From the NCBI GenBank assembly GCA_964603725.1, contig CAZRWW010000010.1, positions 34,935-98,934 on the forward strand: a stretch of 64,000 bases of DNA, read 5' to 3'. The notes under the pieces were generated by a model. It searched no databases, had not been told where the DNA came from, and was given only the letters and a program-made list of their open reading frames with translations. Of this stretch, positions 28,965-59,227 are shown piece by piece (positions within the stretch are counted from its first letter, which is position 1; the number at the start of each line of letters is the position of its first letter). A program made the position numbers and the translations under genes. The stretch is from an uncultured bacterium (GTDB lineage: Bacteria; Eisenbacteria; RBG-16-71-46; CAIMUX01; WJJG01).

Positions 28965-28986
28965 GGACCGCTCTCCCTTTGGCGGC

Positions 28987-36154: not shown

Positions 36155-37450
36155 CAGCGCCTCCGATTCGAGCGATGTCGGAGGGTGCTCACCGAAGGGC
36201 TGTTTTCTGCAGACCTCCCATGAGCAGCAGCTCTCCGAGGCTCTATCGCCCAAGTTCACACCCCACGGGCAATTGGAGCGCCCCGGCGAATGCACCTCGC
36301 CCGAGGTCGCTACTCGCGAACTTGTGGTCGTCTCCGCAGTACCCTCCCGGGACACTCCGCTCAGCCCGGTCAACTGCGCGCCAGCAGACCTATGCGCTCC
36401 CGGGCGGCCAACACGAGTTCCATCGAGGGGTGGCCAGCGCTGAGCCGCAGCCACCAACACCGCGCGTGACGCACTACCCGCCCCGGCAGGTGGCTGATGG
36501 CGTAACGGATCGCCTTCAGCCGCTTCGTCACCCACTCGCCCCCCAAGACCAACCGCTTTAGCGCCGTGTTCAAGTTCAGCGCCAACACCATGATCGCCCA
36601 CCAGGCCGCGTTGGCACCGAACGACCCCGAGGGCAGTTTGCCGCCGGCCAAGCCATGCTTCATCTCCCTGTGGATGCCTTCGCTCGTCCCGCACCGCTCG
36701 CGATACCACCCAATCAACTCCTCACCATCGATCGCGCGGTTCGTCGCGATCCCGAACACCTTGTAGCGCCCCCTGTGCACCAAACTCCTTGACCGGAAAC
36801 GGCAGATCCTGCTGGACGCGGTAGCGCAACAACCGGTGGTTGTAACCAACCTTATCCGATTGCAGATACACGCGCCGCACACCCTGCGGCAATCCCGCCA
36901 ACGCCTCGGCGAGCACCCGCAGGATCTCATAGCCGGCCGACGCGTTGCCGTCCCGGAACTCCGAGTGCATGACCAAACCCTGCTCGACCCAATACACGTT
37001 CAGCGGTTGATACCCCTTGAAGCCCCGGTAACAACACAGCGCCTCCCGCTTCTCGCCCGCCACCAAGGTGGCATCGGCGTCCAGCGTGGCCTGTTCCTGT
37101 GCCGCACACCGCTGCACGAACCCCACCATCTCCCGGTTCACCGCCGCCAACCCTTGCAAGGTCGGCTTCGGCGTCGGAATGAGGGCCTTGTGCGCCTCGC
37201 GCAACTTCTTCTGCTCCGGATAGTGAAACTCCGTCAAGTAGCAAAACGTCGCGGTGGGCGACGGCACACTCCGGTGCCGGCTCTTGCGCCACCGCCGCTC
37301 CCGCGCCCGGCGCTCCCGCCGGAAAACGCCGTGACACTCCACTTGGCGCAGCAACCGACCGAGGCCCTCGTCGTCCTGCCGCACGCGCAGATCGTCCACA
37401 CTCTCCCCACCAGCCAACTGCGTCAGCATCAGCAACAACACGATCCAAGT
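36155..37450 (-). mobile_element. IS1380/IS4-like insertion-sequence remnant. The transposase is split across two frames and 5'-truncated by the IS630 insertion.
   Basis: The track ORFs 36370..36930 and 36722..37903 together encode a DDE transposase C-terminal region (..YRGFKGYQPL..EFRDGN.. and GKLPSGSFGANAAWWAIMVLALNLNTALKRL), but the two frames differ. The 3' 340 bp (36155..36494) recurs at 46360..46700. Confidence 0.5.
36370..37450 (-). pseudogene. Frameshifted, N-terminally truncated IS1380/IS4-family transposase gene
   Basis: Two overlapping reading frames (36370..36930 and 36722..37450) each carry part of the transposase. The upstream part of the 36722..37903 ORF is antisense to the IS630 transposase and so is not real. 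Confidence 0.5.
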
Positions 37451-37513
37451 AGCTTCGCCTGATTCGGAATAACCGCGCTTTGATAGATCTTCCTTGACGG
37501 GCCGCCGGAATAG

Positions 37514-37576
37514 AAAGAGACCTCCCTTGTCAACACAACCCTCCCCAGACGGGGAGAGCAATAGGGAGGTCTCTTT
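37514..37576 (+). promoter_or_regulatory. Perfect 13-bp inverted repeat that sequesters the GGGAGG Shine-Dalgarno of the IS630 transposase
   Basis: AAAGAGACCTCCC (37514..37526) pairs with GGGAGGTCTCTTT (37564..37576), which ends 1 nt before the GTG start at 37577. A nested CTCCCC/GGGGAG repeat sits in the loop. Confidence 0.5.
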
Positions 37577-38620
37577 GTGCGCGCTCGTCTGTTGCCACTC
37601 GGCCGCGCCGCCCAGCGGCGCATCCTGGGCCTCGATCGTAAGACCCGCAACGCGGATGTCCGCATCCGCTGTCGCATTGTCCTGAAGGTCAGCCAAGGCC
37701 AAAGCTGTCGGGCCGCAGCACTTCAGCTGGGCTGCGTCCCCTCCACCGGCTGGCGCATCGTACAGCGATTCCGCTGCCTGGGGGAAGCAGGTTTGCTCGA
37801 CGGACGCTGCGACAACGGCACGCCCAAGCTGGACGACGACTTGCGCCAAGCCATTGAAGCGATCCTCTACAACTCCCAGCCAGACTACGGCTGCCAGCGC
37901 CAAAGCTGGACCCTGGAGATCCTGGCCCGCGTCATTGCCGACGCCCTACAGGTTCAGCTCTCTGTCGGCCACCTCTGGAAGATTCTGAAGACCATGGGCG
38001 TACGCTGGGGTCTGCCCAGGCCCGTCGTGGCCTGCCCCTGGAAGGCCGCCCGCCGCAAGCGCCGGCTGCGCAAGCTGCACCGCTTGGCCCGACATCCCGC
38101 CGCCCGCGAGGTCGTCGTCTATGCCGACGAAGTCGATATCCATCTGAACGCCCGCATCGGTCGCGACTGGATGCCGCGTGGCTACCAGCGCCGCCTGCTC
38201 ACCCCCGGCCAGAACGCCAAACACTACGTCGCGGGAGCCTATGATCCCTTGCGTCAGCGGATGGTCTGCGTCTCGGGTGATCGCAAGGTCAGTTGGCTGT
38301 TCCTCAACCTCTTGCGCGCGCTCCTCCAAGCCTACCCGTGGGTCCGCCGGATCCACGTGATCCTCGACAACTACGTGATCCACAAGAGTCGACTGGTCCT
38401 GACTGCGCTGCGCGCCATGCCCAAGACCCAGCTGCCCTTCTTGCTGCCCTACTGCCCGGACCACAACAAGATCGAGAGGGTCTGGAGAGACCTGCACGCC
38501 AGCGTCACTCGTAATCATCGCTCCCCCGACCTCAAAGCCCTGATGAACAACGTCTACAAGTACCTCAGCGCTCACTTCCAGGTGTTCTATGGTTCCTGCT
38601 TCACGCCGATCAGGACTTGA
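37577..38620 (+). CDS. IS630-family (Tc1/mariner-like) DDE transposase
   Basis: N-terminal HTH, then a DDE region (..VVYADEVDIHLN.. ..ILDNYVIHKS..) typical of IS630 transposases. GTG start. Confidence 0.8.
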   Translation: MRARLLPLGRAAQRRILGLDRKTRNADVRIRCRIVLKVSQGQSCRAAALQLGCVPSTGWRIVQRFRCLGEAGLLDGRCDNGTPKLDDDLRQAIEAILYNSQPDYGCQRQSWTLEILARVIADALQVQLSVGHLWKILKTMGVRWGLPRPVVACPWKAARRKRRLRKLHRLARHPAAREVVVYADEVDIHLNARIGRDWMPRGYQRRLLTPGQNAKHYVAGAYDPLRQRMVCVSGDRKVSWLFLNLLRALLQAYPWVRRIHVILDNYVIHKSRLVLTALRAMPKTQLPFLLPYCPDHNKIERVWRDLHASVTRNHRSPDLKALMNNVYKYLSAHFQVFYGSCFTPIRT

Positions 38621-38757: not shown

Positions 38758-39318
38758 TCAGACCCGGCAGGGAGGCGCCGGAAACCATCCGGAACGGAAG
38801 CACCTTCTGTGGCACCATGGATTCTGCTCGTTGGTGATGGTAGGTCTTGCTATCACCTTCCTATCTACCTGATCTCTTAGGACCCAACGAGGCTTTTCCT
38901 TCTTCAGGCGGTGGATCCGGGCCGAGGCAGCTCTATGACCGCTTGGGCTGTCCAGATCTTCGCCGCCCTTCTGCGAGCTCTTCCCCACCAGTGGATCACG
39001 TTGTGGCGAGGGACACCCGTTCTTGGCGAGCTCGACCTGAACGTAGGCCTTGTCGCCCATCTCCAGGCCCTCGGGCAGGTCGAGCACGTCGTCGTGGCGG
39101 TTCTGCCGAATCACGTCCGAGACTTGGTCGAGATCCTTCCCGCCCTCGGTACGCCTGTGATCTTGATGGGCGCGCCGTTGCTCACGAACTCGGTCAGGAT
39201 CTGGAGGGACGCCTGCCAACAACCCACTCGCCGGGACAGGTCCGAGGGCCGCGATCAGGCGCGACGTGAGCTTGACCTCGTGCTTCGAGTCGGTGCTCTT
39301 GCTGTGGCGCTGCGGCAT
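38758..39318 (-). CDS. Orphan member of the PAAR C-terminal domain family, possibly degraded
   Basis: MPQRHSKSTDSKHEVKLTSRLI.. aligns with the start of the 48888..49772 protein (MDLKFTKDTDTKHTVKLEARLV..) and with internal segments of both PAAR C-terminal extensions. The longer track ORF 38758..39774 fuses it with out-of-frame sequence. Confidence 0.4.
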   Translation of the reverse strand: MPQRHSKSTDSKHEVKLTSRLIAALGPVPASGLLAGVPPDPDRVREQRRAHQDHRRTEGGKDLDQVSDVIRQNRHDDVLDLPEGLEMGDKAYVQVELAKNGCPSPQRDPLVGKSSQKGGEDLDSPSGHRAASARIHRLKKEKPRWVLRDQVDRKVIARPTITNEQNPWCHRRCFRSGWFPAPPCRV

Positions 39319-39332
39319 GGCCGGCCCTCGTC

Positions 39333-39765
39333 TCAGGTCCGGGGTCGGGGCGCGAGGCTGGCGATCATCCCGTCCACCGCGGCGCCCAGGGTCTCCATGG
39401 TCTGCTTCGAGAAGGCGGCGCTGAAGTTGCAGGTCGTGCCCTCGTGCATCACGAAGACGAGCTTCTGGAACACCACCTTGCCCTCGGCCGGCGCCCACTC
39501 GTACACGGCCCCGCAGACGGAGGCACCGTCGGGCCGCTGCCTCGTTCTGCGGCTCAGCAGCTCGGCGCCGGGATGGCTGTCCAGGGAATGCGCGATGCGC
39601 CCCTCGGCATAGTCCTCGATGTCCGTGCTGTTGGGCCGCGCGTTGACCTGGATGAAGAGGATGTGCTGGTGCCCGCCCGCCTCCGGACCCAGGATGAAGT
39701 GGACCAACTGGTCCTTTCAAGCGTCCGGGAGCGCGATCCTGAAGGTGCCGTTGAACCTGTTCATA
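39333..39765 (-). pseudogene. DUF1795/Eag-family chaperone pseudogene; TGA replaces the conserved Trp of the LPDGW motif
   Basis: Minus-strand translation MNRFNGTFRIALPDA[TGA]KDQLVHFILGPEAGG.. aligns with the intact paralog at 50014..50460 (..FKLLLPDGWEDRTVHCFVGPEDVG..). The TGA lies at about 39718..39720. The downstream body is conserved. Confidence 0.5.
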
Positions 39766-39811
39766 TTGCTGCAAACATTTCGGTTAGGAGATCTGCCCTC
39801 ACCAAGGCACT

Positions 39812-41050
39812 CTATTCGAGGCAGTGAATGCCGTCAATGCCCCCGTAGTATATCCTGCCGTCTTCGTCCATGATCATCCTGGTCAAGATGGCCGATTCCA
39901 GCCACTTCGTCAGGATCTCCTGGCCGTCCGCCGAGACGTGCACCAAGACGTGGCCGCACCCCGCGAGGACCGAGCCGTCGGCCAGGACGCTGACGGCGAC
40001 GTCGGGGACGCTGCCGGGGAGCGTGTAGGACCAGACCGCGGCGCCGCTGCGCACCTGCTGGAGCCTGTTGCCGACGACCACGTAGACCGTACCGTCCGGC
40101 GTCGAGGCCGGCGGCTGGGCCGAGGCATCGCCCTTGCCGAGGTCCAGTTCCCAGGCCACGTTGCCGTCTGCAGCGAACTGGCTCAGGCGGGGTGTCTTCT
40201 GCTCGGCGTCCACCAGCAGCGCCTGCCCGTCGGGGGTCATGGCCAGCGAGACGACGGCCGGAGTGACCACCTCGACCACGCCCTTCTCCTCCGTCTCTTC
40301 CCCCCGGAAGAGAAAGAGCCGATCCTCCGTCGCGACGGCGGCCCGCCCCCCGTCGTCGGACAGGGCGACGCCCCGCAGCCGGACCGGGAAGCGAAGCGCC
40401 GACAAGGTCTTCATGCGGTCGGGCAGGTAGCGGATGAAGCGGGAGACCGCGGGGACGGGGTTGTCCTCCGGCGTGCTCACCGGCTCCTCCCGCTCCTCCA
40501 GGCAGTAGACGACCAGCTTGTCCTGCCGCAGGTAGGCGTGCAGAACCACGTCCGGGGAGACGGACGCCAGGTGCACCTTCTGCGCGGCCTGGCCCGCATC
40601 GTCCAGCATGACGCAGTAGCCGGCGTGGTCGAGGGTCAGGATGCCGTCCTCCTCCAGCGCGAAGAGGTGGTTGCCGTACAGAGGATGGGTCCAGCGCACA
40701 TCCCCGCCCGCACGGTCTACGGCGACCAACAGGTCGCCGTAGCAGACCACCAGGAGGTCCCCGCGTAGGCCCAGACAGCGCGGCCGCCGACCCGCGGCCG
40801 CGGGGGCCGATGCGCTCCAGACGACGTCTCCCGCCGGGTGGCCGGCCACCGGCAGGAAGGAGCTGTGGCGCTGGTCGGCGTACATGCGACCGTTGAGGAT
40901 CGTCGGACCAGTCATCATATCCTCCGCATTCTCCAACGTTCTCCGATCTCTTTCGGATCCGCCCCGGCATCCGCTCAGGAGGGGCCAGGACGCCAGGAGC
41001 AGGACCGCCAGGGACAGGATTCGCGCGCCTCTCATGGATTTCTCCTGCAT
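39812..41050 (-). CDS. Lipoprotein with PQQ-like beta-propeller repeats; candidate immunity protein for the upstream metalloprotease-like effector
   Basis: Signal peptide with lipobox LLSGC. Repeated ..DG.V(W/Y).. segments consistent with a beta-propeller. It lies immediately downstream of the 1338-aa effector in the PAAR operon. Confidence 0.6.
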   Translation of the reverse strand: MQEKSMRGARILSLAVLLLASWPLLSGCRGGSERDRRTLENAEDMMTGPTILNGRMYADQRHSSFLPVAGHPAGDVVWSASAPAAAGRRPRCLGLRGDLLVVCYGDLLVAVDRAGGDVRWTHPLYGNHLFALEEDGILTLDHAGYCVMLDDAGQAAQKVHLASVSPDVVLHAYLRQDKLVVYCLEEREEPVSTPEDNPVPAVSRFIRYLPDRMKTLSALRFPVRLRGVALSDDGGRAAVATEDRLFLFRGEETEEKGVVEVVTPAVVSLAMTPDGQALLVDAEQKTPRLSQFAADGNVAWELDLGKGDASAQPPASTPDGTVYVVVGNRLQQVRSGAAVWSYTLPGSVPDVAVSVLADGSVLAGCGHVLVHVSADGQEILTKWLESAILTRMIMDEDGRIYYGGIDGIHCLE

Positions 41051-41117
41051 TTCTGCGCCGCTCCGGACCGCGCGCGGTCCGCCCCGGCCGCCTCTGGGCG
41101 TCCCGGGCCTGCCCAGG

Positions 41118-44100
41118 CTACGGCGTGATCCTCTGCAGGCTGTAGGTCGCCGGCGTGGTGCCGTCGGATCGCATCTTGTCGTTGACCCAAATCTCCAGGA
41201 ACTTCAGCGCCGCTTCCTCGCTGACCCCGGCGTCCATGTTCAGGAAGTGGGCCTTCAGTTCGTCGGCCCTGACGGACTCGGCGACGTCGAGCCGCCCGTC
41301 CGCGCTGATCAGGAGCGTCTTATCGCAGAGCTCGTCCATCGCCCGCTTGTCCGCGGCGCCGGTGAACAGGCCGCGCAGCTCATTCCGGTGGGCGTCGCTC
41401 AGGGCGCCCGTGCCCGTGTACGACACCTTCCGAGACGCGTTGTTGTAGCTGATGTCCGCCTGCAGGCCGACGGACAGAGTGGTCAAGTCCGGCGCCGTCG
41501 ACACGGTCACCGCGTAGTCGGTGATGAAGCTCAGAGCGTGGTTCCAATCGCCGCCGCCGTGGCCCTCCTGGAATCCGGACAGGAAGTGGACGTACAGGTC
41601 GTCCATCCCGGCCGGTCCGCCGACGAGGCGATACTTCTGACCGAGGTCGTCCCAGAACTTCCGGATCAGGCCCAGCCGGTCGTGGGCGTCGGCCGCGGCC
41701 ATGGCCGGCGCACCCATTGCGGCGCCGATCATCACGCGCACGAGCAGGACTCCGTGGTGGCGGTGCGTGGGCTGGTTCTTCGTGAAGCAGCCCTTCGAGC
41801 CCGCCTCGCCGTGGGACGATTCGTCCTCGGCCGTGTCGTAGAGCGCCAGGTGGAGCCGGCGCTGGGAGCGCGACTTCCGCTGCAGCCGGTTGACCGCGCT
41901 CTTGTCGGCCGCCCCGGCGAAGAGGTCGCGCAGGTCGTCGCGCTCGTCGTCGGTCATCGCGCCGCTGTCGGTCCAGAACAGGAACCGATCCGTCGCTTCG
42001 TGGCGCACCTTGGCCCGCAGCGCGGCGTCCAGGGTGGTCAGATCCGGGGTCGTGGACACGGTCACCCAGTTTGGCAGCCGGTACTGGGCATCCCGCACCA
42101 TCGGCTCGCGAAGATCGCCCTGGATCTGCGGCGTGCCCGCGGGCGCCGCGGCGCCCGTCCAGGGCGTCCAGCCAGTGGCGCGCTTGAAGGTCTGGTCCTT
42201 TCCGCCCCGCACGAAGCGGATGATGAACTTCTTCCCCTTCAGCGGGTGGTCCCCCGCGGCCGTGGGCGGCGGGCACTGGGCGTTCAGGTAGTGCAGGTGA
42301 TACCAGCAGTGGCGGCTCCGCGTGACGCCGTTGTGGAACATGATGGCTGCTTCGTTGTTCGGGTCCATGCTGTACTGCGCCAGGTGCGTGGAGAAGGCGT
42401 TGTAGTTACGCTTGTCTCCGCCGAGGTCGACGCCTCCCTTCTTGATGTACTCGTCCTGCAGGCTGGTGGCATGGCCCAGCTCGTGGGCCATGACGAAGCA
42501 GTCGTAGCTGTCGCCGTCCTCCGAATAGCCACCTCCCGTCTCGTATTTCCAGCCGGCATTGGCGGCCTGGTAGGTCGACTTGCGCAGCAACATGGCCGAA
42601 TGGGCCGTCGCGCCGTCCCGCACCGACCAGGCCCACGAGCCCGTCGCCTCGGGAACCAGAAAACACACCCAGCGCACAGACCCGCCGAAGGCACTCTCCT
42701 GGGCAGTCCGGAACTTCCCGTCGTTGTAGACCTGCTGCAGATGCACCAGCCTTTGCGCCGTCGAGAGAGTACTGCTGACGAAGTCCTTGTTCTTGGGATG
42801 GTCCGCCAGCGGGATCTCGAAGGTCTCACGCTCGTCGAAGAAGTAGAATGGCTTGATGCGCAGGGAGTCGTCCGCGGCCGGATCGATGTCCTCGTCGTAG
42901 TGGAAGCGCTTTGAGTTCCAACGCGCCATGGCGTTGTAGGGCGCCTGGTTGACGAAGTTCGAGATGTCGTCCAGGTCCGGGTTGGCGGCGACGGCGGACC
43001 AGGCCGTCCGATCCTGCGCCCCGCGCGTGTCGAGCATCACGTTCCAGGCAACCTCGATCACCAGGAAGGACAAGGGGTGGGTCCCCTCGATGTCCAGATG
43101 GTGGAAGTAGCGCAGCCCGTAGTCGCCGGTGTAGCCGTACTCGTTGTCCGAGACGTTCCGGTCCCAGGTGAAGGCGGCGTCCAGCTTCACCGCCTTCCGC
43201 GCCCCCACCACCGGCCGGTGCGCCAGGTCCATCCAGTTGGCCGGCTGGTCGGTGGTCCGCTCCCGGCCGATGACGAAGAAGTCGTTGCGGAAGTGGATGA
43301 TCCGCGCGTTGGGCGCCATGCCGCTGACCAGGTTCCGCTCGAAACGGATGCGCTCGTCGCGGGCTGTCGTGATGTTGGCGCCGCGGGACGGCGAGGCCGG
43401 AGCCGCCAGCCGCGGCGTCCGCAGCGAGGTGTTGTCCTCGGAGGGCTTGGTCCACAGGCGGAGGGTGTGGTTCGCGGTGTCGACGACAAGCACCTTGACC
43501 CGCGAGCCGGGATTCGCCCGGCCGTCGCAGAGCGCCTTGGCGATGCCCCGCTGGTTCGCGTCCTGGATGTTCTGGTCGTGCGAGGCGGCTGTCTCGAAGA
43601 TGACGACGTCGTCGAGAGAAAACTCCAGCGGCTCGCTGCGCGTCGTCGTGTTGGCGCCAAAGGGCTTCAGCTGGCGTTTGTCCGCGAGGTGCTCGTGGAA
43701 GGCGCAGTCGTGGCTGTGATCTCTGTCGTGGCGGGTGTGGTAGTTATGCGCACTCCACTTCATCGGCAGGTCGTAGTAGTGGAACTTCTGGGCGAAGGTC
43801 AGTTTAGCCCAGTTGTCGGGGCGGTTCACGATGCAGGGCGTCGCGTCGGCGTTCCGCGTGTGGATCATCCGCACGACGGGCGTGCCCTCGTGCTCGGGCG
43901 CCTCGAAGGCGAAGTAGAAGTACCTGTCCATGAAGTCCGGGTTCGGATCCTCGCTGTCGAAGCGGACGCGGACGGAGTGAATGCCCTCCTGGTACTGCGT
44001 AACGCAGGGGATCTCCTCCGGGGCGCTGCCGGCCGTCCGGAGTCGCTTGAAGGCCCTGACGTTCACGCGGCCGGGGATGTCCCGGAATTCCTCCTTGATC

Positions 44101-45134
44101 ACGTCGTAGTAGCGGAACTTGAGGTGGTAGACCACCGCGAAGCGGTCGCCCGGCCCCACGTAGTAGCGGTTGAAGTGCCGCTCGTACCACATCGGACAGT
44201 CGTGCGCCAGATCGTGCACCGCGCTCGTCGGGAGGGTGGGGCAGGCTGCCAGGGCGCCCGACTCGGCGGTGCCGGCCTGGTAGATTAGGACCTCGATGCG
44301 GCTGTCCGTCTCGGAGCGGATCTTCTCGTCGCCTCGCTCGCCGTCGGGCACGGGAAAGGAGTGGGCGCAGCCGACCATCTTGACGGTGCCGTTGATCCAG
44401 TGCAGGCCGCCGCGCAGGGCCGCCAGCTCGGCCCGGGTCTTGCCGAGGAAGTCGCCGACCATCAGCTCGTAGACGTGATAGATCGCACGCCAGTGCGAGG
44501 TCGCGAGCAGGTTTCCCTCCGCCCCGCTCACCACCTCGCCCAGGTTGGGCGGCAGGTCGGCAATCTCCTTCATGTGGGCGGCCACGTCGCTGTTAAAGTG
44601 GGCGGCGAAGTTGTCCAGGGCCGTCTGCGTGGCCTCGTCGAAGGAGTTGTTCACCTCGCCGGGGTCGCACTCCCAGTCGCCGTTCTTCCAGCCGCCGGAC
44701 TCATCGTACTCGTGGACGTGCTTCAGGATCTGCTTGTAATCCCCGACGGTGTGCCGACCACGGCAGGTCAGAGCCCAGCGCTCCGCGTTGCCGGCGATCA
44801 GCTGCAGGATCCCGTCGGCCCGCTCGCGCGAGAGGCGGAAGCTCTCCGGGATGTCGTCCTGCGCCGCCGTGTGGCCGGTGACGAGCAGGCCGCGCTCCGG
44901 ATAGAGCCGCGCCAGGACGAGGGCCAGGCCCACGGCCCTCAAGCCGGTCGCGGGAGGGTCGTCGGCATCGGGATCGACGTCCGGCGACTCGGGCATCATG
45001 ACCGCGCTGTTTTCCCGGAAGAGGACGTCCTCGAACTCGACGATGTCGACGGGGATGCGATCGACCCGGGCCTCGACGGTGGTGCCGGTCACACCGGTGG
45101 CGCCGACCCCGCCGCTGCCGCCGTTCATTGCCAT
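41118..45134 (-). CDS. Giant (1338 aa) T6SS cargo effector candidate with an OmpA/MotB-like N-terminal domain, a central zincin HExxH metallopeptidase-like domain and a duplicated C-terminal ~65-aa module
   Basis: N-terminal LLVTGHTAAQDDIPESFRLSRERADGILQLIAG resembles the OmpA_C peptidoglycan-binding motif. CFVMAHELGHATSLQDEY is an HExxH motif. The C-terminus has two homologous segments (VTVSTTPDLTTLDAALRAKV..LRDLFAGAADKSAV and VTVSTAPDLTTLSVGLQADI..LRGLFTGAADKRAM). It lies directly downstream of a PAAR gene. Confidence 0.65.
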   Translation of the reverse strand: MAMNGGSGGVGATGVTGTTVEARVDRIPVDIVEFEDVLFRENSAVMMPESPDVDPDADDPPATGLRAVGLALVLARLYPERGLLVTGHTAAQDDIPESFRLSRERADGILQLIAGNAERWALTCRGRHTVGDYKQILKHVHEYDESGGWKNGDWECDPGEVNNSFDEATQTALDNFAAHFNSDVAAHMKEIADLPPNLGEVVSGAEGNLLATSHWRAIYHVYELMVGDFLGKTRAELAALRGGLHWINGTVKMVGCAHSFPVPDGERGDEKIRSETDSRIEVLIYQAGTAESGALAACPTLPTSAVHDLAHDCPMWYERHFNRYYVGPGDRFAVVYHLKFRYYDVIKEEFRDIPGRVNVRAFKRLRTAGSAPEEIPCVTQYQEGIHSVRVRFDSEDPNPDFMDRYFYFAFEAPEHEGTPVVRMIHTRNADATPCIVNRPDNWAKLTFAQKFHYYDLPMKWSAHNYHTRHDRDHSHDCAFHEHLADKRQLKPFGANTTTRSEPLEFSLDDVVIFETAASHDQNIQDANQRGIAKALCDGRANPGSRVKVLVVDTANHTLRLWTKPSEDNTSLRTPRLAAPASPSRGANITTARDERIRFERNLVSGMAPNARIIHFRNDFFVIGRERTTDQPANWMDLAHRPVVGARKAVKLDAAFTWDRNVSDNEYGYTGDYGLRYFHHLDIEGTHPLSFLVIEVAWNVMLDTRGAQDRTAWSAVAANPDLDDISNFVNQAPYNAMARWNSKRFHYDEDIDPAADDSLRIKPFYFFDERETFEIPLADHPKNKDFVSSTLSTAQRLVHLQQVYNDGKFRTAQESAFGGSVRWVCFLVPEATGSWAWSVRDGATAHSAMLLRKSTYQAANAGWKYETGGGYSEDGDSYDCFVMAHELGHATSLQDEYIKKGGVDLGGDKRNYNAFSTHLAQYSMDPNNEAAIMFHNGVTRSRHCWYHLHYLNAQCPPPTAAGDHPLKGKKFIIRFVRGGKDQTFKRATGWTPWTGAAAPAGTPQIQGDLREPMVRDAQYRLPNWVTVSTTPDLTTLDAALRAKVRHEATDRFLFWTDSGAMTDDERDDLRDLFAGAADKSAVNRLQRKSRSQRRLHLALYDTAEDESSHGEAGSKGCFTKNQPTHRHHGVLLVRVMIGAAMGAPAMAAADAHDRLGLIRKFWDDLGQKYRLVGGPAGMDDLYVHFLSGFQEGHGGGDWNHALSFITDYAVTVSTAPDLTTLSVGLQADISYNNASRKVSYTGTGALSDAHRNELRGLFTGAADKRAMDELCDKTLLISADGRLDVAESVRADELKAHFLNMDAGVSEEAALKFLEIWVNDKMRSDGTTPATYSLQRITP

Positions 45135-45146
45135 AACCAGAGCCTC

Positions 45147-46229
45147 TCAGGATCGATTCTGATCCCGCACGTTGACGGTGACCCGTATTCGCCCGGGCGA
45201 AATGTCCTCCACCTTGCCGCAGCCGTTCTCGTCGAGGGTGCCCTCGATCACCTGGCCGTTGGCGCAGACCACGCAGTAGGGTTCGTAACCCACCTCGTTG
45301 CCCTCCTCGTCCCACAGCTGCAGCTCGATCCAGTCCTTGAAGATCCGCGATCCGGAGCGCGCCGCGCAGATGCTGGCCTCGGCGATGCAGTGGAAGGTCG
45401 GCGCCGAGTTCCCCTGCCAGACGCTGCGCTCCTCCTGGACCGGCAGCAGGTCCTCGGCCACGTCGAGGGTCCACTCTCCCTCGATCCGGTCGCCGTCGAC
45501 CTGGGTCTCGATCATCCGGAGCTCGCGCTCGGGGGCGTTGAGGTCGCGCATGAAGATCGGCAACCGCGCCGGGGTTCCCGACTCGAGCGCCGAGCACTTG
45601 CCCTGCGGCCGGACGACTTCGCCCAAGCCCGCCCCGCCGACAGACCAGGCGGCCCGGGAGGTGACGCACACCTCGATGTCGTAGCTGCCGGACTCGAGGT
45701 CCGTCTTGCACAGGGTGCCGTCAAAGGTGCCGACTTCCTTGACCGTGCCGCGACCGCAGAGGGCGCAGCCAATTCCCGTGACCGGGAAGCCGCCCTCGTC
45801 CACGAAATCGACGTGCAGAAAGTGGTCGTCGGCCTCCTCGGTCTGGGAATCGATGCCGGCCTCGCTCTCACAGGCCGAGCTGCCGGCCCCCCCGGCGGTC
45901 GCGCAACCGGCTGCGGTGCCGGTCCCCATCAGAACGGTCGGGCAGCCAGGTGGCGCAATGGTGTCGAGCGGTCCGACGCAGGTGGCCATGTCGCCGGCGC
46001 AGGCCGCCGGGAGGCCGCCGGTCAGCACGGTCGCCACTTCGGGCGGCATTACGGGCCCGCCGACGTGGGCGATGGGTGGGGTCCCTGGCGTCCGCATGGG
46101 GCAGGTGCGCATGTCGCCGACGCGGGCCGCCGGAACTCCCCCGATGAGCACAGTCGGCGCGCCAGCGACGACCTTTCCGCCATGGGCGGTGGTGTCACCC
46201 AATCGCGCGTCCGGTTTGGACATACCCAA
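45147..46229 (-). CDS. PAAR-repeat spike-tip protein with a ~200-aa C-terminal extension domain of unknown function
   Basis: N-terminus RLGDTTAHGGKVVAGAPTVLIGGVPAARVGDMRTCPM..TVLTGGLPAACAGDMATCVG carries the PAAR motifs. The C-terminal half is homologous to the 50507 PAAR C-terminus and to the standalone ORFs at 48888 and 38758. Confidence 0.85.
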   Translation of the reverse strand: MGMSKPDARLGDTTAHGGKVVAGAPTVLIGGVPAARVGDMRTCPMRTPGTPPIAHVGGPVMPPEVATVLTGGLPAACAGDMATCVGPLDTIAPPGCPTVLMGTGTAAGCATAGGAGSSACESEAGIDSQTEEADDHFLHVDFVDEGGFPVTGIGCALCGRGTVKEVGTFDGTLCKTDLESGSYDIEVCVTSRAAWSVGGAGLGEVVRPQGKCSALESGTPARLPIFMRDLNAPERELRMIETQVDGDRIEGEWTLDVAEDLLPVQEERSVWQGNSAPTFHCIAEASICAARSGSRIFKDWIELQLWDEEGNEVGYEPYCVVCANGQVIEGTLDENGCGKVEDISPGRIRVTVNVRDQNRS

Positions 46230-46359
46230 GCCCCAGGAACGTCGGTAGGATTCCTCAGTTCCCGAAGATCATACCAGCAGCAAGCCCCAGTGTCATCTGT
46301 TGGCAATCAGCACTCACTCGACGGTAATGACTGGGGTGGGGAGAAGTCAACGGAGCCCC

Positions 46360-46700
46360 GGGAATCCACCGCCTCCGATTCTGGCGATGTCGGAGGGTGC
46401 TCATCGAAGGGCTGTTTTTGCAGGCCTCCCATGAGCCGCAGCTTTCCCAGGCTCTATCGCCCAACTTCGCACCCCAAGGGCAATTGGAGCGCCCCTGCGA
46501 ATGCACCTCGCCCGCGGTCGCTACTCGCGATCTTGCGGTCTTGCTCGCAGTACCTCACGGGACACTCCGCCCAGCTCGGTGACCCGCGCGCCAGCAGGCC
46601 GATGCGCTGCCGAGCGGCCAACACGACGTCCGTCGAGGGGTGGCTGGCGCTGAGCCGCAACCACCAACACCGCGCGTGACGCACCACCCGCCCCGGCAGG
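46360..46700 (-). repeat. 340-bp partial copy (about 88% identity) of the 3' end of the IS1380/IS4-like element at 36155..36494
   Basis: Directly alignable nucleotide blocks, for example GATGTCGGAGGGTGCTCA.CGAAGGGCTGTTTT and CACCAACACCGCGCGTGACGCAC.ACCCGCCCCGGCAG. The copy lacks the stop codon, producing the chimeric ORF 46454..46975. Confidence 0.8.
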
Positions 46701-46975
46701 GAGTAAGAGGAATCTTGTGTCCTTGACCGCTGGGATCTAAGGGGCTTGCGAGACTGGCACGACCGTCGTCGCCCTAGGCGCCGGTGGCCGGGGTGGGGGA
46801 GTATGCTCTGCGCCTGTGCCTGGGCCGGTGGCCACCCCCGGGAGTCTGCATGCCGCGCGTACCGGCGGATCGCCTTGCCATCCACGCCCGTGTGACGTGC
46901 GATCTCCCGCTGGCTGAACCCGTAGCTTATTAGAGTCTTGATCGCTATCCGTAGATGGCTCTTCAAACTGTTCAC
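46454..46975 (-). pseudogene. Chimeric IS remnant ORF: an N-terminal IS-type HTH fused to the C-terminal tail of the IS1380/IS4-like transposase
   Basis: N-terminus MNSLKSHLRIAIKTLISYGFSQREIARHTGVDGKAIRRYARH is an HTH. C-terminus ..LPGRVVRHARCWWLRLSASHP.. equals the end of the 36370..36930 ORF. There is no DDE core. Confidence 0.5.
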
Positions 46976-47170
46976 TCCTTCCCCCCTTCCCTGTGGTGAA
47001 GGGGGTAGGGTAACGTCCCGCCGCTGAGCCGGCGATCAGGTGATGCTCAGCTCACTGCCAGGTGGGGAGTTTGAGGTGGCCATCGCTGGCGGAGCTTGGG
47101 TGGCCACCGGGGCTTTGTGGAAGGAAGGACTCCATCTCATCACTTACAGCCCAACATTGCTGGGGGCGCT

Positions 47171-48181
47171 CTACCCTCCTGCACCATCCGCACACCAGAT
47201 GTGTTTCCACGTGATCCGGAGGGTCTTGCCCTCGGTGCTGACGTCGATCCAGTAGCCGTTGTCCATATTCCAGTTCTTGACCACGGATCGGAACTGGTTC
47301 TGCTGATCCTCGCTGCTTGGATTGCCCTGATAGAGAGTGATCAAAGCCTCGCAGAGCTTCTCCGCCAACCCCACAGCGCGTGTCCGCAGAAGGTCGGGAT
47401 AGTACTTCGTCTTCGACTTGATCCGGTCGTGTTCGACCAAGGACATATGCGGTTTCGTGGGCACGGGACTTCCAACAACGCCCCAGATGATCCGAGACTT
47501 GTCATACGCCTCGTCCAGAACCACGTCATAGTAGTTCTCGTAGCAGTTCTTCAGGTAGGCGAAGCCCGGGGACTGGCCGTGCGTGTTCTGGAAGGCGAGT
47601 TCTATGTCGCGTAGAACATCTTTGGTCTCGGCATGGAGCTGCGTATAGCCCGGCATGGCAGGCAAAGTAACCTGAGTGCAGGGAGGGACTAAGTGGACCC
47701 AGGAGGAACCCGTGTGGATGTCTTTGCGTCCGTAGAATTCCTTCGCGAGGTATGAGTCCTGGTGACACTCAGAGGTCTTGTGAATGTCCTTGATGACCTG
47801 GGAGTGGTAAGCACCCGCGTAGCAGTTTACGTAAGGGTGAACCATCGCATCCGCCGCAACGTGCGTGGCATGCCCGAGCGCGTAGGCCAGCGTCCGTTCC
47901 CGGCGGTCCTTGTCCTTCGTGGTCTTTGCCACGAGGACCAGCTGCAGTAGGAACTCTCCCTGCTTGTTGTAGTGGAATAGGTCCGCATAGACGCTGTGGC
48001 CGGACTTCTCCCGGCAGTATGGCAGATCGGGTCCATTCGCGCCGAAGTAGACGTACTTGGAGATGCCCTCGTTCTGATCGTCCGCACGACCCTTGAAGAG
48101 CTCGTAGCCCTGCTTTTTGCCGTTGATGAAGCGCCAGGCGACATCCTTGGCAACAGCCCAATGCGCCAGAATAGCAGGCAT
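47171..48181 (-). CDS. Zinc-dependent phospholipase C / S1-P1 nuclease-fold protein; candidate T6SS lipase effector
   Basis: N-terminal MPAILAHWAVAKD and LAYALGHATHVAADAMVHPYVN match the H/D zinc-ligand pattern of the Zn-dependent PLC family. It is the last gene of the PAAR2/Eag operon. Confidence 0.55.
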   Translation of the reverse strand: MPAILAHWAVAKDVAWRFINGKKQGYELFKGRADDQNEGISKYVYFGANGPDLPYCREKSGHSVYADLFHYNKQGEFLLQLVLVAKTTKDKDRRERTLAYALGHATHVAADAMVHPYVNCYAGAYHSQVIKDIHKTSECHQDSYLAKEFYGRKDIHTGSSWVHLVPPCTQVTLPAMPGYTQLHAETKDVLRDIELAFQNTHGQSPGFAYLKNCYENYYDVVLDEAYDKSRIIWGVVGSPVPTKPHMSLVEHDRIKSKTKYYPDLLRTRAVGLAEKLCEALITLYQGNPSSEDQQNQFRSVVKNWNMDNGYWIDVSTEGKTLRITWKHIWCADGAGG

Positions 48182-48253
48182 CGCAGACCCTCTTGATCAA
48201 CTCTGCCTGAGCCTACGGCGCTAGGCCACTAGCATCAGGCAGTAGTAATAGCA

Positions 48254-48859
48254 TTAGACAGTGGTGACGACTTGCTTGCCGTTTTTCCAGTAGATGACCC
48301 CGTCAATCAGGCAATCGAGAATCTTGGCCTCCTCCTTCTTGTCGAGACGGATCAGGATCCGGTTGATGCCTGCATCCGACTTCTGCAGATCCTTGGCAAG
48401 CTCATCGAACGTCTTGGTCTCTCCGGTCAGACAGAAGTCACCGCGGAACAGGATGATCTGCGCCCGTAGAGAGGCTGTTGGATATACGTCCGCATCCTCC
48501 CGGAAGACCGTCTTCCCGCTGTCCTTGTCGTACGTCTTCAGAAGACCGCCTTTCTGCGGTTTCAGGGTGACACACAGGTTTTCAAGAGAATTGTTGACGC
48601 AGTCCACATCTCGCAGAGTGATGGAATGGCGATTGCCCTTGGTGACGACTCCGCGATCGCTCACCTTCCGAAGCCGTCCCTCGTGCATTTCCATCAAGAG
48701 CCGGCCGCTTCTGTCTCCCAGCTCAAGATCAGCTTTGGTCTTCAGGCCAGCCGTGGGATCGATCTCGATGGCGAGTTCGATGTTCACTTGCGACAGGACG
48801 AGGGGATGGCTCTCACCGGTCTTCAACTTGCTATCGGTCTGCTCGGGGTCACCCATCAC
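48254..48859 (-). CDS. Hypothetical 201-aa protein; candidate immunity or adaptor within the PAAR2 effector operon
   Basis: Complete ORF with plausible composition and no recognisable motif. It lies between the PAAR C-terminal-domain-family ORF and the PLC-like gene. Confidence 0.4.
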   Translation of the reverse strand: MMGDPEQTDSKLKTGESHPLVLSQVNIELAIEIDPTAGLKTKADLELGDRSGRLLMEMHEGRLRKVSDRGVVTKGNRHSITLRDVDCVNNSLENLCVTLKPQKGGLLKTYDKDSGKTVFREDADVYPTASLRAQIILFRGDFCLTGETKTFDELAKDLQKSDAGINRILIRLDKKEEAKILDCLIDGVIYWKNGKQVVTTV

Positions 48860-48887
48860 GTCTCTCCTGTACAGGCATGCCTACCCG

Positions 48888-49772
48888 TCACTCTCCGGCT
48901 TGCTCAGGCAGGATGGTAACGGTGCAGGTTCCGGGAGGGATGTTATCGAGACGGATGAGACCCTCCTCGTTGATCTGCTCCTCGCGTTCACTACCGTCGG
49001 GAAGCGTAATCCGTGCCCTTCGGTTGGCGGCAGGTTGGCCGTCGACCCCGGCGCAATGGACTTCCATCCAATCCTTGAATCTCAGAAGCTCCGATTCCTG
49101 TTCCGTCCCAAACTCCTTCTCCCCGACCTTCACCGTAAAGAAGTACTCTGGCGGGTTGTAGCCTCCTCCGTACTTCTCCATCTCTTCCTGGGTAGGAATC
49201 TCGTCCGTGTCCTCGTAGTACTCGTACTCCCACTGTACGTCGATCCGCTCGTCGACTACCTGCGCAGGCAGCTCCACGATCTTGTCCGGTGCCCCATTTT
49301 GGTCATACTCGTAGACGGTGACAACAGCCTCTGTCCCGGGTGGCGCCCCCTGCACTCTGGCGGTCATCTTCAGGAGATCCCCCCGGCGAGCCTCCGTCGC
49401 ACTCCACTTGAGGTTGGAGACCTTGATGGGTGGGTAGGCCTGTATCCGATCCGACTCCCCCCGAATCGAGTGCTTGGGCAGTTCCACCATGAAGTAGACT
49501 TCATCCCCGACCTCGATGTCCTCCGGTATGCTGAGTGCTGTGCACAGGACGTTTCGTGAGATCTTCTCTTTGACCTTGCCCAGCTTCTTGCCTCTGACGC
49601 TGCGCCCCTCGATGGTCACCGGCGCGCCCAGGCCGACCATCTCCGTGCGCACCTCGAGTCTGACCTTCTGGCCGCCGAATGCGCATGGGGACAGCCACTG
49701 CGCTCGCACGAGACGCGCCTCGAGCTTGACGGTGTGCTTCGTATCCGTGTCTTTGGTGAACTTGAGATCCAC
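48888..49772 (-). CDS. Standalone member of the PAAR C-terminal domain family (294 aa)
   Basis: Aligns with the C-terminal extensions of both PAAR proteins, for example ..YFFTVKVGEKEF..LLRFKDWMEVHC.. versus ..YYFIVMAGDCMAQSGVLKYKDWIEIKL... It has no PAAR motifs. Confidence 0.5.
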   Translation of the reverse strand: MDLKFTKDTDTKHTVKLEARLVRAQWLSPCAFGGQKVRLEVRTEMVGLGAPVTIEGRSVRGKKLGKVKEKISRNVLCTALSIPEDIEVGDEVYFMVELPKHSIRGESDRIQAYPPIKVSNLKWSATEARRGDLLKMTARVQGAPPGTEAVVTVYEYDQNGAPDKIVELPAQVVDERIDVQWEYEYYEDTDEIPTQEEMEKYGGGYNPPEYFFTVKVGEKEFGTEQESELLRFKDWMEVHCAGVDGQPAANRRARITLPDGSEREEQINEEGLIRLDNIPPGTCTVTILPEQAGE

Positions 49773-50013
49773 TCTATTCCCCTAATGAACTTGGCCCGGG
49801 GGCTGTCGGGAACATCCCAGAACCGAACACGCTGAGCCGGTAGCCCGACGGTTGGCGGCCGGCAGCACACCCTTAGGGCCATGCCGCCCCCAGCTCAACG
49901 AAGCACCCCAACAGCCGCCTACGTCATTCCCGCCACTGAGGACTACGTCACCCCGCGACACCGGTCTACGTCACCGCTGCGATCGCCGCTTACGTCACCG
50001 CCGCGACCGCCGC

Positions 50014-50460
50014 CTACGTCCCCCCCGCGATCGTATCCACCATGCTCGTGATCTGCGGAACCAGCATCTTATTCGCCCGCTTCGAGAGATCCACCCAGCA
50101 AGTGTACCCCGTCCCATCGAGCATCAAGTAAAAGTGCCTGCGGATCAGGGTCCGTCCGTCGGGGTGCGCCCAGCGGCACACCAAGCTGTAGCACTTCTTA
50201 CCGCTCGGGAGCGCCTCCTCGCCTTCGCTGGTGACCTCTGCCCCCGCCAGGGCGTCCAGGGCCGCATCTCGACGCAGGCGTGCATACGCCTCCAGGGCTG
50301 CCGACTCGGGTTTCGGATCAATGTTAATCAGTAACGTGGGTTGTTCGCCCACGTCTTCCGGGCCAACGAAGCAGTGGACCGTGCGGTCTTCCCACCCGTC
50401 GGGTAGGAGCAGCTTGAACTGATGATTCGTCCGATCCGTCACGATGGCCTCACGACCCAC
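50014..50460 (-). CDS. DUF1795/Eag-family effector-associated chaperone
   Basis: 148 aa with the F.LLLPDGWEDRT motif characteristic of DUF1795 (EagR/EagT) adaptors. It lies immediately downstream of a PAAR gene. Confidence 0.65.
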   Translation of the reverse strand: MGREAIVTDRTNHQFKLLLPDGWEDRTVHCFVGPEDVGEQPTLLINIDPKPESAALEAYARLRRDAALDALAGAEVTSEGEEALPSGKKCYSLVCRWAHPDGRTLIRRHFYLMLDGTGYTCWVDLSKRANKMLVPQITSMVDTIAGGT

Positions 50461-50506
50461 CGGCGGCGGGCAGCGTCCGCAAGGACTCCCCGGCCCTCAG
50501 TGCCGC

Positions 50507-51634
50507 CTAGCTGCCTTGGCTCCGAAGATCGAATGACACCTCAACCTTCCCCGGAGCAATCTTCTCGACCCTGGCCTGGCCCTGCGAGTCCAGCTGGCCT
50601 TCCCTTATCTCACCGTTCGGCATGCGCAGCTTGTACTTGGCGTTGCCGATCGGCTGATCCTTTTCATCAACCAGCTTGATCTCGATCCAATCCTTGTACT
50701 TCAGCACGCCCGATTGCGCCATGCAGTCGCCCGCCATGACGATGAAGTAGTACGATGGGGTTGAATAGGCGCGTTTTGGAGCGCTTTCGTCGTCTTCCGG
50801 GATGGCATTCTCGACCTTGAACTCCCATTCGGCTTCGATCTTATCGCCACTGACCTGGGAATCCAAGGTGTACAAGATCCGGTCGGGGCGCTTGTTGTCG
50901 CGGGCGAAGATGCGCAGGGTCGCCGGTGTGCCGCCGTCGATGCCGGAGGTCTCGGCGGTCAGCTTGACCTTGTCGCCGACCGCAGCCTCCGCGACGGACC
51001 AGTTCGCGTGATGAATCACCCGTAGCTGGATCTCGTAGCTGCCTTCCTCGACCCCTGTACACTTGAGATGTCCCGCTAGCATTCCTTGGGTCACCTTGCC
51101 GGAGGGGTACTTGAGTTCGTACTTGAGATCCGACACCGGGAACCCGCCTTGATCGACGAACTTGACGTCGAGGAAATGGGTCTCTTCCTCAGCTTCAGCC
51201 TCACCCTCACCGGCGGCCTGGCCCTCAGCGCTGCGATCAGCAAGCGCGAGCTCGGCGGCCACCTGCGCGCCGCCCTTAACGCCCGCACCCCGGCCCGAGC
51301 CCGTACGGCCGGCGCCGCCTCCACCTCCGCCTCCGCTCTGGCCGATCAGGACGGTGAAGCATCCCATGGCGATCGTATCCGGCGGTCCCGCGCATTGGCA
51401 CATGTCGCCCACGCGAGCTGCCGGCATGCCGCAGATCAGGACATTGGGGGATCCCATCGAAATCGGACCGCCGACGTGAGGGGAGGGACCGGGGTTCATC
51501 ATGGGGCAGACGTGCATGTCGCCGACGCGAGCCGCCGGGGCTCCCCCGATGAGCACAGTCGGCGCCCCGGCGACGACCTTCCCGCCATGGACGGTGGTGT
51601 CACCCAATCGCGCAGCCGGCTTAGACATGAGCAA
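50507..51634 (-). CDS. PAAR-repeat spike-tip protein with a Gly-rich linker and the same ~200-aa C-terminal extension domain
   Basis: N-terminal PAAR motifs (AARLGDTTVHGGKVVAGAPTVLIGGAPAARVGDMHVCPM..). A poly-Gly linker is followed by a C-terminal domain homologous to the 45147 PAAR C-terminus. Confidence 0.85.
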   Translation of the reverse strand: MLMSKPAARLGDTTVHGGKVVAGAPTVLIGGAPAARVGDMHVCPMMNPGPSPHVGGPISMGSPNVLICGMPAARVGDMCQCAGPPDTIAMGCFTVLIGQSGGGGGGGAGRTGSGRGAGVKGGAQVAAELALADRSAEGQAAGEGEAEAEEETHFLDVKFVDQGGFPVSDLKYELKYPSGKVTQGMLAGHLKCTGVEEGSYEIQLRVIHHANWSVAEAAVGDKVKLTAETSGIDGGTPATLRIFARDNKRPDRILYTLDSQVSGDKIEAEWEFKVENAIPEDDESAPKRAYSTPSYYFIVMAGDCMAQSGVLKYKDWIEIKLVDEKDQPIGNAKYKLRMPNGEIREGQLDSQGQARVEKIAPGKVEVSFDLRSQGS

Positions 51635-51980
51635 GCCTCAGTGACGCTAGCGAAATCCCACGATTCGTCACGATCATACAAGCGGCCGGACTTGCTGTCA
51701 CCTGGTTGTCAGCGGAGCTTGTCTTTGCGTAGGCACCTGACTCAGCTTCTTGGTTATCGGACGGATCGCCCCAGCCCCGCCCGGGAGGTTAAGACGCAAC
51801 AGGAGATACAGATGTAAGCATTCCTGGCGCTGTAGCGACCCGCCGGTCACGCGCCTGCCTTGCACCCCCTGCGTCTGGCCCATAACCTCGCCACAGAATC
51901 GCACAATCCCGATTGACGGTCGCCCCCCGAACTCACTACTATCGACGTGTTCGGCAGCGCGTAGATGGCGCGGAAGGTCA
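51635..51980. promoter_or_regulatory. Divergent intergenic region between the PAAR2 effector operon (minus strand) and the ClpV-TssBC-Hcp-VgrG-TssEFG operon (plus strand)
   Basis: About 350 bp of non-coding sequence sits between two divergently oriented T6SS gene sets. No specific promoter motif could be assigned by eye. Confidence 0.3.
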
Positions 51981-59136: not shown

Positions 59137-59227
59137 CAGGGCGGCCTCCTGATCAGGATATCGTCGGCCGGCCGGAGGCTGCTGATTCCGGCCGGCCCGC
59201 CAGCCTGTGCTAGCCGGAGGTGCCCTC

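Follow-up and report, generated by a model that had tools for sequence, protein, structure and literature searches.

The 64,000-nucleotide stretch analysed here (the window; contig CAZRWW010000010.1 of an uncultured Eisenbacteria genome) carries an island encoding a type VI secretion system (T6SS). Three of its proteins, the PAAR proteins PAAR1 and PAAR2 and a 294-residue protein that we call O294, end in the same genuine module of about 170 residues, composed of a macroglobulin/immunoglobulin (Ig)-like β-sandwich followed by a small CarboxypepD_reg/transthyretin-like domain. We give about an even chance to the reading that this module is a non-catalytic carrier or adaptor and that O294, together with the Eag-like chaperone of the DUF1795 family encoded next to it, makes up a second cargo unit. 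This reading is based on the module being mobile and non-catalytic, on its presence on every kind of projectile component and on its position ahead of fused toxins.

PAAR1 and PAAR2 are paralogues over their full length (43% identity, E = 1e-91 by BLASTP), each with a PAAR domain above the Pfam cut-off of 27 bits (72.7 and 88 bits, respectively), and the PAAR part of PAAR2 matches PAAR proteins in the PDB (9rce_c, 8gra_J and 4jiw_D). Using BLASTP, residues 207-368 of PAAR2 align with residues 118-287 of O294 at 30% identity (E = 2e-25), and residues 191-352 of PAAR1 with residues 119-287 of O294 at 23% identity (E = 2e-11). The comparison of family profiles with hhalign joins O294 116-290 and PAAR2 199-370 with a probability of 100% and E = 1.9e-51. 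These alignments confirm the claim of the initial annotation that both PAAR proteins and the 294-residue open reading frame (ORF) share a C-terminal region, with its size corrected from a single domain of about 200 residues to a two-part module of about 170. The block YFF(T/I)V...LL(R/K)(F/Y)KDW(M/I)E(V/I), cited there as common to all, is found in O294 and PAAR2 and is degenerate in PAAR1 (TFHCIA...SRIFKDWIEL); PAAR1 keeps each of the 12 invariant positions of the module alignment. A 187-residue ORF had been counted as a fourth mutually alignable member, but it has no BLASTP match to PAAR1 and only a chance-level one to PAAR2 (E of at least 1.5). The N-terminal motif KDTDTKH.VKLE.RL, listed initially among the shared blocks, is common to this ORF and O294 and is confined to O294-type proteins, being absent from the PAAR proteins.

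AlphaFold2 (AF2) models built from the family alignments are all-β for both O294 and PAAR2 (mean pLDDT 87 and 82). O294 comprises a conserved N-terminal peptide, a first sandwich D1 (residues 19-112), a second sandwich D2 (116-231) and a five-stranded domain D3 (234-286). D2 is interrupted by an acidic loop (182-207) that is modelled with low confidence and represents the best-conserved segment of the O294 family (74% identity); the N-terminal peptide is also conserved across the family. In the extended PAAR proteins (PAAR-ext family) the PAAR domain is followed by a linker, a small domain Da, and the pair Db-Dc, which corresponds to D2-D3 of O294. Da repeats the fold unit of Dc and D3 (hhalign E = 1.6e-12 against Dc and 3.3e-12 against O294 D3), and the kinship of D1 is marginal (E = 0.059 against D2; E = 2.6e-4, 42% probability, against PAAR Db), too weak for an internal duplication to be proposed. 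The structural search proposed in the initial annotation gave tandem macroglobulin domains as the best Foldseek matches. The small sub-domain of PAAR2 stays below threshold for PF13620 (14.4 bits, cut-off 32.3) and PF17802 SpaA (20.1 bits, cut-off 23.1), and that of O294 has no Pfam match to either; relatives bearing the same module exceed the Pfam cut-off, the small sub-domain matching CarboxypepD_reg significantly (58.3 bits in P0250, 97.8 in P0241 and 113.7 in P0242). Scans against Pfam, NCBIfam and PHROGs returned no match for O294 or the 187-residue ORF and only sub-threshold matches for the PAAR extensions. Profile searches of the PDB sequences found no relative of the module, the O294 family profile retrieving only an unrelated biofilm protein (E = 0.0035). 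The columns invariant across O294 and PAAR-ext are W, S, A, G, P and D, of the type found in β-sandwich cores, and no catalytic motif was seen among the conserved residues of the alignment of both families.

The 187-residue ORF, described initially as a standalone copy, is what remains of a second DUF1795-O294 pair. It matches only residues 4-101 of O294 (33% identity, E = 8e-11), that is, the D1 domain missing from the PAAR proteins. The hidden Markov model (HMM) of the O294 family finds positions 2-32 and 63-103 in one frame and 33-62 in another, and the homology ends at about position 103 of 298, adjoining an insertion sequence (IS) element. Given these two frame changes and the early end of the homology, the ORF is a frameshifted and truncated pseudogene. 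Directly upstream stands a DUF1795 pseudogene, intact apart from a single in-frame stop (39717-39719) replacing the invariant tryptophan of the family (LPDGWeD to LPDA*KD), and it looks like a recent one. Since both genes of the second copy are inactivated, only one of the two DUF1795-O294 pairs of the window is intact, and the decayed one occupies the position that is canonical in other loci, after a protein with an HExxH motif and a β-propeller.

Both families are large; the homologue figures, at least 496 for O294 and at least 1,347 for PAAR2, are lower bounds, and identities were taken from the best 120 of each. The O294 family (about 295 residues, unannotated) shows 49-73% identity to the window protein over the full length among these best 120, and the PAAR-ext family (about 360 residues) 43-77%. 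In one-genome-per-species data the O294 family is hosted by uncultured Ignavibacteria, Zixibacteria, Krumholzibacteriota, GN15 and related bins. Gene order was assessed in 81 O294-centred loci, 80 from the one-genome-per-species scan plus the reference locus L002, and usually runs PAAR-ext, variable genes, DUF1795, O294, variable genes, ClpV, TssB, TssC, TssD, VgrG, TssE and TssF. DUF1795 lies immediately upstream of O294 in 67 of 77 loci, which bears out the co-occurrence that the initial annotation had suggested examining; PAAR-ext is found upstream in 47/59 and the T6SS core in the flank in 45/56. In the reverse test, with metagenome loci retrieved by the TssC of this lineage, an O294-type gene was present upstream in 26 of 28 loci and DUF1795 in 27 of 28, so both are near-universal companions of that T6SS lineage, and O294 is accordingly not a variable payload. 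The DUF1795 family profile matches EagT6/PA0094 (6xrf_A / 1tu1_A, E = 1.2e-4). Neither the sequences of PAAR1, PAAR2 and O294 nor the all-β models of PAAR2 and O294 contain N-terminal transmembrane helices or hydrophobic segments. Upstream of PAAR-ext in many loci (L019, L026, L030, L051, L072 and others) a conserved block encodes a PF00069 Ser/Thr kinase, two unannotated proteins and a 620-residue protein that ends in a sorting domain for type IX secretion; this block may be concerned with PpkA-type regulation.

Orphan islands were found as well. In L087, the nearest relative of the window genes, PAAR-ext, DUF1795 and O294 are followed by a gene for a 405-residue protein, and no T6SS core occurs within 17 kb of that island; in several other loci, pairs of O294 and a large protein stand alone, far from PAAR or T6SS core genes. 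The T6SS core of the window is only about 23-35% identical to those of the Ignavibacteria and Zixibacteria loci (L002-L086), with 25% for both TssC and VgrG, while TssC proteins of this Fibrobacteres-Chlorobi-Bacteroidetes (FCB) type are 74-82% identical to the TssC of L002. Against this core identity of about 25%, the window proteins share 49% (O294) and 44% (PAAR-ext) identity with their FCB homologues, which suggests that the trio is portable, either moving between very different T6SS lineages or being common to them.

An HMM search of 1.84 billion cluster representatives with the module profile yielded 4,891 matches at E<=1e-3, of which 1,386 reach E<=1e-10 and 260 reach E<=1e-30. A complete module forms the C-terminus of VgrG-like, Hcp, phage Dit-like (P0274) and Rhs proteins, and tandem arrays of three to six modules are found in large proteins (P0241, P0242, P0250). 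O294-type N-termini precede a C-terminal AHH nuclease (E = 2e-15) as well as phage lysozyme, PG_binding_1, OmpA-like and metallo-β-lactamase-fold domains, and in relatives of PAAR-ext the extension is followed by Tlde1, PG_binding_1 or OmpA-like domains. O294 relatives of 470 residues were considered as DUF1795 fusions and this was ruled out, the additional part being the C-terminal AHH nuclease. At L002 (4104-5282, + strand) and in similar Zixibacteria loci, Da-Db-Dc is borne by a divergent PAAR-type N-terminus, so the extension joins more than one kind of tip domain; this N-terminus matches PF05488 only at E = 1.8e-7 and has a PIPHPF-like motif reminiscent of PIPY/DUF4150 domains.

The genes that follow either carrier are highly variable. 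After PAAR-ext they mostly encode a protein of about 1,000-1,300 residues of an HExxH family together with a β-propeller lipoprotein, and in some loci HExxH proteins with a peptidoglycan-binding domain, and others, take this place. The 1,338-residue HExxH protein of the window belongs to family c6, which comes after PAAR-ext in 25 of the 36 loci whose downstream gene is of a recurrent family; in many loci the lipoprotein comes after the c6 protein. Around 40 families were found after O294, including HExxH proteins and proteins of 700-1,000 residues with glycine-zipper, membrane-like segments, and such transmembrane-like segments occur only in some of the downstream proteins. Families c31 and c46 are found downstream of both carrier types. 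The phospholipase-C (PLC)-like ORF of the window resembles c66, which in L051 and L071 is the second gene past O294, with c65 in between. The placement of the PLC-like ORF after O294, and of the HExxH protein and lipoprotein after PAAR1, matches this general pattern. Since most of the downstream proteins have no Pfam match, it is their position, variability and motifs that point to them as candidate effectors. No dedicated small immunity-like gene consistently follows O294 across the O294-centred loci.

In a sample of 32 O294 sequences and seven downstream families, the D3 domains of pairs with the same downstream family were 9.9 points more identical once D1-D2 identity was controlled (permutation p ~5e-4), and D1-D2 displayed no such link. 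As a separate observation, the N-termini of the downstream proteins in L002-L086 show a basic tendency. Over residues 1-40 their mean net charge is +1.6 and +2.0 in the two groups, compared with -0.6 for the remaining genes, a result that is heterogeneous and depends on start-codon calls, with the split between proteins after PAAR-ext and after O294 deriving partly from an imperfect classification. Some of these N-termini are strikingly rich in Lys and Arg, and many relatives of O294 and PAAR-ext end in long acidic tails; electrostatic docking of basic N-termini to the acidic loop or tails is possible.

Taken together, gene order, fusions and D3 co-variation favour the cargo-docking or adaptor role that the initial annotation had put forward as one option; the role itself is one that we infer from this comparative evidence, and so are physical loading on the spike, the DUF1795 protein acting as chaperone to a client, and the downstream genes encoding effectors. 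PAAR-ext would cap VgrG and display the module on its flexible linker, and O294, with the help of the DUF1795 protein, would be added to that spike as its second carrier. The effector encoded directly downstream would travel with each of them, the toxin being fused to the C-terminus of the carrier in other genomes, and the last, transthyretin-like sub-domain may contribute to effector specificity. A broader proposal, which we put forward only tentatively, is that PAAR-ext, the Eag-type chaperone and O294 constitute a portable three-gene 'dual-cargo spike kit', with two carriers of the same module on each spike and a soluble β-sandwich protein as the client of DUF1795; the kit would have moved between very different T6SS lineages, and the module would be a common cargo handle on PAAR, VgrG, Hcp and Rhs proteins.

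Several observations weigh against a carrier role. O294 remains 49-59% identical across loci with unrelated downstream genes, so that most of the protein is not expected to bind diverse cargo directly and specifically, and the 74% conservation of its acidic loop implies a partner that is constant and not variable (the chaperone, the spike, PAAR-ext or a target structure). Transmembrane helices, the ligand of known Eag chaperones, are missing from O294 and PAAR-ext. The co-variation of D3 comes from a small sample and could stem from recombination of cassettes, and the corresponding effect for Dc of PAAR-ext is not significant (+2.0 points, p ~0.09). The scarcity of Pfam matches among the downstream proteins counts here too. 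In an Rhs protein the whole of Da-Db-Dc follows the DPxGL motif, in the slot usual for the toxin, and arrays of five to six modules in giant proteins fit a generic spacer.

Part of this evidence would suit a different function, in which O294 and the DUF1795 protein are non-secreted accessories of spike assembly and the module serves as an interface in assembly, not as a handle for cargo. Such accessories could keep the VgrG-PAAR-ext tip stable or set its size, or they could occupy the cavity of the baseplate, as has been suggested for Tvp/DUF2169 complexes. The near-universal presence of both genes in one T6SS lineage (26/28 and 27/28), the high and uniform conservation of O294, acidic loop and N-terminal peptide included, and the movement of the trio as a unit in L087 are in agreement with this idea, and multi-protein complexes around PAAR have precedent (PMC13373197; PMC11883445). 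We nevertheless regard it as unlikely, because the O294-type proteins that end in an AHH nuclease, a lysozyme or a peptidoglycan-binding domain imply that the O294 part must be exported, and the orphan pairs of O294 and a large protein lie far from any PAAR or T6SS core.

In another alternative, the module would be a binder of the prey envelope, or a penetration aid, at the tip of the projectile, acting on peptidoglycan, glycans or the outer membrane much as Ig-like or carbohydrate-binding decorations do on phage tail proteins. It has the fold class seen in adhesins and in macroglobulin and CarboxypepD_reg domains, it is fused to the Dit-like tail protein P0274, PG_binding_1 and OmpA-like domains are often associated with it, and it occurs in tandem arrays in giant proteins and in the payload slot of an Rhs protein. 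The higher identity of O294 and PAAR-ext (44-49%) than of the core (about 25%) to the FCB homologues would fit a conserved external ligand as well. No carbohydrate- or peptidoglycan-binding motif was identified in the module, however, and envelope binding leaves unexplained both the strict pairing with a cytoplasmic Eag-type chaperone and the variable gene cassettes after each carrier, so that we consider it unlikely.

The possibility that the module is a generic structural spacer, extending or linking parts of secreted proteins and having no specific partner, appears improbable. Tandem repeats in the giant proteins P0241, P0242 and P0250, the many unrelated architectures and the structural nature of the invariant residues are what a spacer would show. 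It would not account for the conserved N-terminal peptide and the 74% conserved acidic loop of the O294 family (a loop of low model confidence), for the co-variation of D3 with the downstream family, or for a free-standing O294, consisting of little besides module-type domains, that is kept in 26/28 clusters. Finally, the new toxin family with orphan copies that the initial annotation offered as its second option is very improbable: the module is unannotated and C-terminal in PAAR, Hcp and Rhs proteins, the usual toxin position, but its conserved residues are not of catalytic type, it lies N-terminal to genuine toxin domains, O294 is highly conserved and near-universal rather than variable, no small immunity-like gene consistently follows it, and the 'orphan' of the window is a pseudogene.

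How diverse effectors are recognised by T6SS spikes and loaded on them is understood only in part, and nearly all studies of it concern Proteobacteria and a few Bacteroides. The carrier reading has its closest parallel in the transthyretin-like (TTR) C-terminal domains of VgrG and PAAR proteins, whose adaptor role is documented for VgrG1-Tle1 of enteroaggregative Escherichia coli and VgrG2a/2b of P. aeruginosa (PMC7376260). These are also β-sandwich domains on spike proteins, implicated in the delivery of an adjacent, separately encoded effector and found between spike and fused toxin, and the last sub-domain of our module is TTR/CarboxypepD_reg-like. In contrast, the unit described here is a fixed pair of a macroglobulin-like and a small TTR-like domain, with an additional small domain in PAAR-ext; it also occurs free-standing, as O294, which has an N-terminal domain of its own and an Eag-type chaperone, and the window proteins have no above-threshold match to curated families. 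In the T6SS(iii) of B. fragilis, a cargo complex of BtpeA, BtaeB and BtapC on VgrG (PDB 9jg8, 9jdh; Li et al. 2025, cited in PMC13402684) is reported to be needed for T6SS function. There too, a protein bearing PAAR is joined by a small adaptor and by another protein, the N-terminal β-sandwich domains of which sit in the spike complex; two cargoes are co-delivered, and the toxins of BtpeA and BtaeB are in cis, unlike in O294, PAAR1 and PAAR2, which carry none. When the O294 family profile was compared with PDB sequences BtaeB showed no sequence relation to O294, and the structural score for O294 was barely above those of generic Ig-like matches.

Eag/DUF1795 proteins serving prePAAR effectors (EagT6-Tse6, SciW-Rhs; PDB 1tu1, 6xrf, 6xrb) resemble the present case in that the chaperone gene lies immediately upstream of its presumed client within a PAAR-containing module. 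The known clients are PAAR or Rhs effectors with N-terminal transmembrane helices; O294 and PAAR-ext lack them, so client and binding mode must differ from known Eag systems, and the client could be membrane-active downstream effectors instead. In polymorphic T6SS toxins, MIX, FIX, RIX, PAAR and Rhs are N-terminal domains that act in trafficking or as markers (PMC11925235). Like MIX-type markers, the D1-D2-D3 part of O294 is conserved, non-toxic and followed in some relatives by interchangeable toxins (AHH, lysozyme); it differs from them in that its commonest form is toxin-less and near-universal in its lineage, and that the module is also present on the PAAR tip. The Ig-like and carbohydrate-binding decorations of phage tails ('evolved' Dit) belong to the same fold class, and the Dit-like P0274 has a C-terminal module, whereas nearly all module contexts here are T6SS ones. 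Spike-extension or adaptor domains, carriers of polymorphic toxins and Eag-type chaperones are thus already known as such. Neither the module nor the O294 family nor the trio of PAAR-ext, DUF1795 and O294 has a counterpart in Pfam, NCBIfam, PHROGs, PDB sequences or the literature searched, and the literature search found nothing relevant on T6SS in Zixibacteria or Ignavibacteria.

The features of the window are collected in Table 1. At 59-69%, the G+C content of the T6SS island (34-64 kb) is lower than the 66-73% of the window to its left. The modules are bordered by IS material, which suggests that the PAAR1 block was rearranged or inserted. Two near-identical promoter-like sites (GTGACA or ATGACA, 17 nt, TATGAT), at 51673-51701 and 46268-46296 on the - strand, each lie about 45 nt upstream of the respective PAAR start codon; since some 75 nt of upstream DNA can be aligned between both PAAR genes, their duplication took in the promoter region. 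The window has two consecutive sheath-like genes; FCB-type loci contain only one TssC, with TssD after it. The tandem ORFs of about 140 residues are probably duplicated tube proteins, by analogy with related clusters in which TssD/Hcp occupies their position. As to a Bacteroidota-type (subtype iii) context, the TssC of the window matches PF17541 and yet is only about 25% identical to FCB-type TssC. A Zixibacteria locus matched PF17541 with its TssC and PF17642 with its TssD, both of them models derived from Bacteroidota. Outside the island (25770-32658, - strand), a 1,223-residue ClpB-like AAA+ protein with a PCRF-domain match is adjoined by a BTAD/NB-ARC/TPR regulator-like ORF.

Table 1. Positions in the window of the carrier genes, candidate cargo genes, T6SS core and mobile elements
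Feature	Position	Strand	Remarks
Weak DDE_Tnp_1_4 ORF	36722-37903	-	beside O294 pseudogene
DDE_3 transposase	37577-38620	+	
187-residue ORF	38758-39321	-	remnant of second O294 (D1 only) at 39022-39321
Pseudogene of second DUF1795 gene	39336-39764	-	DcrB-family HMM E = 1.2e-42
PQQ/BamB-like β-propeller, 412 residues, candidate immunity protein	39812-41050	-	lipoprotein-type signal (...LLSGC); PF13360 E = 6.8e-10
HExxH protein, 1,338 residues, candidate PAAR1 cargo	41118-45134	-	weak M64/M6 peptidase matches
PAAR1, paralogue of PAAR2	ORF 45147-46229; as gene 45147-46223	-	PF05488 E = 3e-20
Shared module of PAAR1	45162-45677	-	
Da of PAAR1	45678-45824	-	
IS-like fragment, helix-turn-helix/TnsD-like	46454-46975		between PLC-like gene and PAAR1
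Zn-dependent PLC-like ORF, 336 residues, candidate cargo	47171-48181	-	PF00882 E = 2.3e-8
ORF of 201 residues, candidate cargo	48254-48859	-	position downstream of O294
O294 gene, 294 residues	48888-49772	-	N-terminal peptide, D1, D2, D3
Shared module of O294	48903-49427	-	D2 with conserved acidic loop, D3
O294 N-terminal peptide KDTDTKHTVKLEARL and D1 β-sandwich	49428-49772	-	part matched by 187-residue ORF
DUF1795/DcrB (Eag-like chaperone) gene	50014-50460	-	PF08786 44.9 bits, cut-off 27.2
PAAR2, PAAR-ext family	ORF 50507-51634	-	373 residues from ATG (50507-51628); PF05488 E = 4.8e-25
Shared module of PAAR2	50519-51034	-	Db macroglobulin/Ig-like sandwich, Dc small β domain
Da of PAAR2	51035-51187	-	small transthyretin/CarboxypepD_reg-like β domain; hhalign
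PAAR domain of PAAR2	51335-51628	-	PF05488; then disordered Gly/acidic linker, residues 99-147
ClpV	51750-54725	+	T6SS core, divergent from PAAR/O294 genes
TssB	54770-55237	+	T6SS core
TssC	55256-56638	+	PF17541 E = 1.6e-38
Second TssC-like gene, 513 residues	56643-58184	+	weak TssC match, E = 1.1e-3
Two tandem ORFs of ~140 residues	58241-58672, 58714-59136	+	between sheath genes and VgrG
VgrG	59207-61201	+	T6SS core

The module marks a large unannotated family, with 4,891 cluster representatives at E<=1e-3, of which 260 reach E<=1e-30. In uncultured Ignavibacteria, Zixibacteria and their relatives it points to dozens of candidate effector families that have no annotation. It would be of practical use as a genomic marker in the search for effectors, in the manner of MIX or DUF4123. 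Its association with DUF1795 suggests a new type of client for Eag/DUF1795 chaperones, and if O294 is needed for firing, this T6SS would offer another case in which cargo carriers are structural parts of the machine.

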